Below are positions 4,465-4,756 of a DNA stretch of 64,000 nt, piece after piece (within the stretch, counting starts at the first letter, position 1; each line of letters starts with the position of its first letter). Source of the DNA: Eledone cirrhosa (lineage: Eukaryota); NCBI GenBank assembly GCA_964016885.1, contig OZ024740.1:117304001-117368000 (forward strand). The letters are read 5' to 3'. The notes beneath the pieces were generated by a model. The model made no database searches. It was given only the letters and a program-made list of their open reading frames with translations, and had not been told where the DNA came from. The position numbers were made by a program, and so were the translations under genes.

Positions 4465-4756
4465 GATCGCTCATGAAATCCACCCAGCTTATGCTGACCG
4501 GATAACCATGTTGCTTGATTATTCCCATCTTTGCGTTGCTTTCATCCTTCTATGTTGTTTACTTGCCTCACTCGCTTTACGCGATTTACTTGTGTCCCAA
4601 TAGCTTTTTTTAATTATTGCTCGCACCAACCTGAGGTATATGATTTTTAATGCGATGAAATATCAATGATGGTTGGCAAATCACTGACGAAGGACTATTT
4701 TTATCATATGTAACCCATGTGCAACCACGCAGTATTCTTCTTTCTTCTCATGTTTT
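4465..4756 (+). mobile_element. Family B element (best-preserved motif, 4621-4695)
   Basis: Clear similarity to 375-648; ends in a (TA)n array. Confidence 0.8.

Follow-up and report, generated by a model that had tools for sequence, protein, structure and literature searches.

The window analysed here, a 64,000-nucleotide stretch of the Eledone cirrhosa genome (contig OZ024740.1), contains eight copies of a hammerhead-like RNA motif in an nhmmer profile search, the number given in the original prediction. The 4.6 kb copy lies within a 5′-truncated, non-coding element at 4467–4755 on the + strand, which terminates some 65 nt past the core, at a (TA)n tract. A degenerate copy at 376–648 (+) has an extra A in its GAAA block (580) and a shortened hairpin f. 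Two tandem pairs, both correctly recognized from the outset, occupy 9368–10070 (−), where the motif at 9377–9490 is intact and the upstream motif (10004) has no GAAA block, and 59354–60040 (+), where another subfamily is represented by a first motif (59388) truncated on its 5′ side at strand a′ and a second (59951) with the change C3U. The copy at 62624–62733 (−), which carries A14U (62638), is the inverted partner of the copy at 63160–63273 (+), which has an intact core and a shortened strand b′; the two stand head-to-head. A hammerhead core had been predicted for all eight copies, and such a core is present, but a descriptor finds it intact together with stems I and III in only three (CUGA at 4684, 9392 on the minus strand, and 63259), the other five being mutated or truncated.

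In the 4.6 kb copy, the whole predicted ribozyme spans 4593–4696 (+) and reads e′–hairpin f–a–b–c–A|d–a′–GAAA–c′–b′–d′–CUGACGA–A–e, where the bar marks the predicted cut. Strand e′ (4593–4597), which pairs with 4692–4696 and closes the motif, is followed by hairpin f (4598–4619; CAAUA/UAUUG versus CAACG/CGUUG), by strand a (UCGCA, 4621–4625; partner 4651–4655), which is the displaced 5′ strand of stem II, and by strand b (CCAACC, 4626–4631; partner 4671–4676), which belongs to the helix joining stems I and II. Block S (4635–4647) consists of the stem III strand c (GGUAU, 4635–4639), the triplet AUA with the predicted cut between A4640 and U4641, placed there by analogy with hammerheads, and the stem I strand d (4641–4647). 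Block G (4651–4664) holds a′ (UGCGA, 4651–4655), position 11.1 (U4656), G12-A13-A14 (GAA, 4657–4659) and the stem III strand c′ (AUAUC, 4660–4664). The remaining part (4671–4696) comprises b′ (GGUUGG, 4671–4676), the stem I strand d′ (4677–4683), the core C3–A9 (CUGACGA, 4684–4690), position 10.1 (A4691) and strand e, and the 10.1–11.1 pair is A4691–U4656. The original prediction had located strands a–d, a′–d′ and CUGACGA accurately, and its assignments of c/c′ to stem III, of d/d′ to stem I, of the triplet AUA and of the + strand as the RNA all hold; its limits (4621–4695) were too narrow, and it missed helix e, hairpin f and the A4691–U4656 pair. The opposite strand was considered as well and rejected as a canonical hammerhead, as it is without CUGANGA.

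The order of the core blocks, cut site–GAAA–CUGANGA (S-G-C), is indeed the reverse of the hammerhead cycle and not a circular permutation of it. The further proposal that this order constitutes a new topology does not stand, as it has been published as type SGC (HRIMA-1 and a variant; Eckert et al., 2023; PMC10085705). In the window motif, the chain has its opening immediately 3′ of A9, a gap that helices e and f close. Subfamily comparisons and pair counts lead to a model in which one RNA molecule would form stems I and III and a one-pair stem II below an e/f/a junction (four-way), with helix b predicted to tie stem I to stem II. Strand a is therein the displaced 5′ strand of stem II; the original prediction had helix a/a′ in place of stem II, which is no simple replacement. 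Nested folding, a method unable to represent pseudoknots, is weak for the 4.6 kb copy (z +1.09); for two subfamily copies, the centroid structures contain e, f, b, and c. Comparison with Rfam, suggested along with the original prediction, yields no hammerhead at 4560–4745 and four weak snoRNA matches far below threshold, a miss that is expected because the order is pseudoknotted.

The structure was evaluated in an alignment of 17 hand-picked copies from seven subfamilies. The proposed pairs form in 92.1% of cells, compared with 28–46% for slid structures; 12 of the 36 pairs show two-sided change (4 of 500 shuffles), as do 45 cells (0 of 500 shuffles), although these shuffle tests ignore kinship and related copies inflate covariation counts. 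The two-sided pairs lie in stem I (5 of 7), hairpin f (3 of 7), helix b (2), and helix e (1). Within the 17 copies, no pair of helix a or stem III varies on both sides, and further pair types are no more numerous than in the shuffles; stem III is 98.8% paired, with one-sided changes only, and consists of 5–6 non-palindromic pairs. The claim of covarying helices thus stands for b/b′ and d/d′, whose quoted variants were correct, but not for a/a′ and c/c′ inside the family; support for these two comes from the more distant Naiad versions described below. The A15.1–U16.1 position is U-A in 17 of 17 aligned copies, and the NUH triplet is AUA in the window family and GUA in Naiad-linked loci. Helix b occurs as CCAACC/GGUUGG, CCAGCC/GGCUGG, CUAGCC/GGCUAG, and CCAACG/CGUUGG.

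A larger set consists of the first 100 pattern matches listed on contig 1; the CUGANGA block, b, e, and f were not used in the search, whereas G12-A13-A14, A15.1–U16.1 and the NUH bases were part of the pattern, for which the set is not independent. CUGAYGA is intact in 91 of the 100 copies, and among these only N7 varies (83 U, 8 C). The third pair of stem I is formed in 98 of 98 copies, as G-U (37), A-U (34), or G-C (27). The single pair of stem II, 10.1–11.1, also covaries: it is present in 82 of the 91 copies in three types (50 A-U, 20 G-C, and 12 G-U), the rest of the stem being the predicted e/f/a junction, and it is a C-A mismatch in subfamilies C and D. The alternative partner of 11.1, the base before helix a, pairs in 2 of 91 copies. 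The four pairs of helix a are formed in 88–93 of 98 copies. Among the 72 copies parsed for e and f (the other 28 were unparsed or uncounted), helix e has at least three pairs in 68, with the variants GUCC/GGAC versus AUCC/GGAU (one subfamily), and hairpin f has five pairs in 69. Comparison of nine natural tandem unit types gives an identity of 79% for the motif and 52% for the remainder, and 55 of 109 motif columns are invariant versus 124 of 634 elsewhere.

A search of the E. cirrhosa genome (3.0 billion bases) with an exact 25-place pattern covering the cut-site and GAAA blocks gave 10,781 matches, and the reversed control gave none, so that the motif greatly exceeds chance expectation. In 59 evenly spaced stretches of 10 kb, the profile search found eight copies, distributed over five of them, and the total is therefore probably some tens of thousands, as a rough figure. 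Young copies of the element are 98–99% alike. Other hammerheads are also present. Several unrelated type I families occur in the window at 2258 (−), 2397 (+), 12608 (+), 14843 (−), 21172 (+), 29085 (+), 29417 (−), and 60805 (−), and the type I descriptor has 44 matches in 590 kb of evenly spaced stretches; this genome is therefore very rich in hammerhead repeats. One stretch holds a single S-G-C-ordered candidate unrelated to the window family (L107:5669–5725), with nine pairs in stem I, five in stem III and an unclear stem II, which may be a chance match or a second family. The Rfam matches listed for the window (150 of 674) are microsatellite noise and one tRNA, which lies above the Rfam threshold at 63916–63986 (−).

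The element that carries the motif is a non-coding unit of 488–679 nt, 66–71% pyrimidine, with one motif per unit and no long ORF, the longest ATG frame being 43–95 aa (nine units). Its 3′ ends adjoin TA or CA repeats and fall 12–20 nt (29 of 100) or 52–67 nt (50 of 100) after the core, while the 5′ ends are scattered over the whole unit. Among 25 pairs of neighbors within 4 kb, 10 are in tandem, 14 head-to-head, and 1 tail-to-tail. The runs recorded as containing the sequence include none listed as RNA; in contigs of two runs of unrecorded kind, the unit is joined to TA flanks, with no shared ends, which speaks neither for nor against expression. The marks of Naiad-type Penelope-like insertion are all present, namely a (TA)n target, 5′ truncation, an inverted 5′ copy, and a 3′ tail, and the repeat probably represents a Penelope-like retroelement that is non-autonomous and bears a ribozyme of Naiad type.

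We estimate at about three in four the probability that the motif is a self-cleaving S-G-C hammerhead, opened inside its CUGANGA block and carried by a non-autonomous Penelope-like repeat, and that it would cut after A4640 as a monomer. By analogy, G12 and G8 would act as in other hammerheads, in which their use in the cleavage chemistry is established (PMC11300833). Tandem transcripts would then be cut at A4640-equivalent sites into monomers of 490–680 nt, which would be circularized; a Penelope-type endonuclease and reverse transcriptase could prime in nicked (TA)n and copy round the circle, and such copying would yield the tandem, 5′-truncated, and inverted insertions. The same cycle has been proposed for type I retrozymes (PMC7229834; 10.64898/2026.07.22.740005).

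Insertions that start at the predicted cut with TA before it number 137, or about 1.3% of eligible copies, and two control sites with TA microhomology have 40 (about 1.3%) and 14 (about 1.2%), with denominators estimated from the 100-copy sample (98, 28, and 11 of 100, respectively); the genome therefore retains no footprint of cutting. That 5′ ends are not enriched at the cut site would agree with a different reading, in which the hammerhead-derived fold cut slowly or not at all and were kept mainly as a recognition signal for a Penelope protein or as 3′ protection, which we regard as unlikely. Nearly all sampled copies are unbroken across the scissile bond, and stem II has a single pair that is mismatched in two subfamilies; in addition, metazoan Penelope-like element (PLE) hammerheads cut poorly in vitro (PMC4209133), and 8 of 9 Xenopus retrozyme dimers remained uncut (10.64898/2026.07.22.740005). 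The continuity of the bond, however, fits a re-ligated circle and an uncut template equally, and conservation follows the pattern of catalysis, with N7 free, the other core bases fixed, and stem I and the 10.1–11.1 pair covarying. Self-cleavage by the monomer remains our preferred reading of the motif.

It had also been suggested that the motif assembles in dimers or tandem transcripts. Tandem copies are common, and minimal PLE hammerheads work as dimers (PMC4209133), which would suit a ribozyme that works solely in trans, either in dimeric form or between tandem units. The PLE dimers, however, stem from a missing or palindromic stem III, in contrast to the 5–6 non-palindromic pairs found here, and helix e closes the motif on itself. 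Five natural SGC RNAs cleaved during transcription as single motifs, at 0.007–0.13 per minute (PMC10085705), so that dimer or tandem assembly is unnecessary; two units would, moreover, give only other reverse-cycle orders and never the canonical one. Activity restricted to such assemblies therefore seems quite improbable.

Naiads are Penelope-like elements with which the window family shares several marks. Like the window element, they have (TA)n targets, partial tandems, an inverted 5′-truncated copy, and a 3′ tail, of 30–40 bp in Naiads and PLEs (Craig et al., 2021; PMC8557442); unlike it, they encode an ORF. The last 300–400 nt of 53 of 54 Naiad consensus sequences (supplement File S5 of PMC8557442) were examined by eye. 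Six 3′ UTRs show the same e–f–a–b–c–d layout with different stems: Naiad_Obim and Ovul from octopus, Amil, Aacu, and Anas from Acropora, and Bfor from a ctenophore, in which stem I has just two pairs. Six nematode Naiads (Nbra-1, -2, -3, Hcon, Hpol, and Asuum) show instead a type-CSG hammerhead that is complete and whose outer helix is long. In the same terminal regions, neither layout was recognized by eye in the remaining 41 sequences. The 3′ end of Naiad-1_Movir looks twister-like by eye. Bivalve and hemichordate Naiads have another conserved structured 3′ motif in common, which is without CUGANGA.

Metagenome contigs were scanned with a gapped pattern and then a stem filter, and among the matches listed, 20 of 124 loci hold a motif of the window order with unrelated stems. 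In an alignment of the 14 loci with enough flank (of 17 available), the six helices pair in 94.6% of cells; two-sided changes occur in e, f, b, and stem I, and their cell count is above shuffles, although the number of two-sided pairs (5) is not (209 of 500). The window pattern in viral contigs gave four matches, none of which passed the stem filter. This recurrence of six helices with unrelated sequences, together with the layout of published Naiads from three phyla (by eye), largely refutes already the very improbable view that common ancestry within a young family of repeats produced the pairings by accident and that the core words arose by chance, for which one could cite the kinship of the subfamilies, ignored by the shuffle tests, and the lack of an Rfam hammerhead at 4560–4745.

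In the metagenome loci, helix a reaches G12 and supplies G10.1–C11.1, as it does in the Naiads with this layout, whereas the window family uses the base after A9; the arrangement is one step of branch migration from that of the window family. In one metagenome contig (L364), the motif lies about 550 nt past an ORF end 65% identical to P0029, a protein with an N-terminal GIY-YIG domain (E 7e-4, slightly below the Pfam threshold) together with CxC, DKA, and reverse transcriptase (RT) motifs, and the window layout is thus found behind the end of a Naiad ORF. The other six long-flank metagenome loci have no such protein motif upstream. Craig et al. (2021; PMC8557442) describe Naiads as being without canonical hammerheads, flag just “HHR_core” or “half_core” words, and argue that the absence of hammerheads is no hindrance to Naiad spread. 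Since the same layout stands at the tail of some Naiads, to judge from their sequences the motif is likely the missing self-cutter of some of the elements reported to lack such ribozymes.

A mobilizing partner was also sought in the E. cirrhosa genome. The Naiad remnants found there are old and broken, resemble published Octopus Naiads by eye, and match P0029 by BLASTP (E 1e-11). Searches covering the best-scoring candidates found no intact Naiad in this genome, and no intact motif occurs in the 231 kb around the remnants. A pattern modeled on the motif of the octopus Naiad gave 0 matches in the genome, as did another pattern for Naiad RT, the second of its kind. The best 30 GIY-YIG loci were rejected as partners, as they are PLEs with a C-terminal endonuclease whose own ends are without the motif, and the same applies to the long frames in 10 further stretches. 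Because the long open PLE frames found carry a C-terminal endonuclease, the mobilizer may belong to a different PLE clade or be a Naiad missed by the searches. Three loci (L180, L182, and L183) have long open PLE frames of 938, 1096, and 636 aa, respectively, with RT plus a GIY-YIG domain at the C terminus, and are candidate mobilizers in trans.

More generally, we consider it fairly probable that reverse-cycle hammerheads, far from being viroid oddities, are ribozymes native to part of the Naiad clade and spanning animal phyla: nematodes would carry type CSG, and the Naiads of ctenophores, corals, and octopods a further wiring whose chain enters by way of a junction of helices, between A9 and stem II. 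If so, the six-permutation scheme would have to be joined by a layout that lies outside it, the report of Naiads lacking hammerheads would be explained, and a class of retrozymes invisible to type I descriptors would come to light. If the motif cuts, the scheme of Eckert et al. (2023; PMC10085705) would need an extra entry point, some Naiads would have a ribozyme, contrary to Craig et al. (2021; PMC8557442), and retrozyme surveys based on type I descriptors would miss families of more than 10,000 copies. The motif, at about 105 nt, comes with natural compensatory variants.

Among known hammerheads, the closest are those of type SGC. Eckert et al. (2023; PMC10085705) count six possible orders, taking CUGANGA and the stem strands next to it to be inseparable; their account reports no covariation-supported non-circular form in a known organism, places the SGC members in soil and spruce metatranscriptomes only, and includes two CSG sequences, both metagenomic. 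The SGC ribozymes and the window motif have in common the S-G-C order, a 3-nt linker between stems I and II, a helix joining these two stems, the double pseudoknot, and a size of about 60–100 nt, and published SGC cleavage requires the helix equivalent to b (PMC10085705). They differ in that the strands equivalent to a and b directly follow CUGANGA in SGC, including SGC-3, whereas in the window family a and b are placed on the 5′ side of the cut site. The window motif also departs from the uninterrupted CUGANGA block of SGC, as the GGAC after its core pairs with an upstream GUCC and not with the strand before GAAA. The hosts differ as well, with metatranscriptomes for the published SGC and an animal genome with more than 10,000 copies for the window motif. 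The stem II strands of the SGC-3 oligo and its extra U after A9 nearly match the octopus Naiad motif (PMC10085705), a resemblance that may reflect shared origin or chance. With e and f taken as the connector, the cyclic order is that of SGC and CSG, so the window motif would be a further opening of the reverse-cycle ribozyme, outside the six-type scheme.

An opening after A9 is plausible because there are two precedents. PLE hammerheads commonly have an extra base between A9 and 10.1 (PMC4209133), and a crystallized pseudoknot hammerhead has only G10.1–C11.1 under A9–G12 and a cleavage rate of 16 per minute (Zhan et al., 2024; PMC11300833). The latter shares with the window motif a one-pair stem II with other helices stacked, and the former the tolerance of an insertion at 9–10.1, which is a single base there and two helices holding the RNA ends here; both, unlike the window motif, have the canonical circular order. 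The non-LTR retrozymes of animals, whose proposed mobility involves circular RNA and Penelope-type proteins, resemble the window element in their non-coding tandem units with one hammerhead each (Cervera and de la Pena, 2020; PMC7229834; 10.64898/2026.07.22.740005), whereas they are defined and searched by type I hammerheads and have units of mostly 150–450 nt. The available text of the retrozyme preprint (Li et al., 2026; 10.64898/2026.07.22.740005) names no cephalopod. In the literature searched, which covers few subscription journals, SGC and CSG hammerheads are reported neither from animal genomes nor from Naiads, and no hammerhead is described that is opened after A9 with its stem II strand detached from CUGANGA. 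Compared with these systems, the strand order is already published, and what is new is the split CUGANGA block, the animal host, and the link to Naiads.
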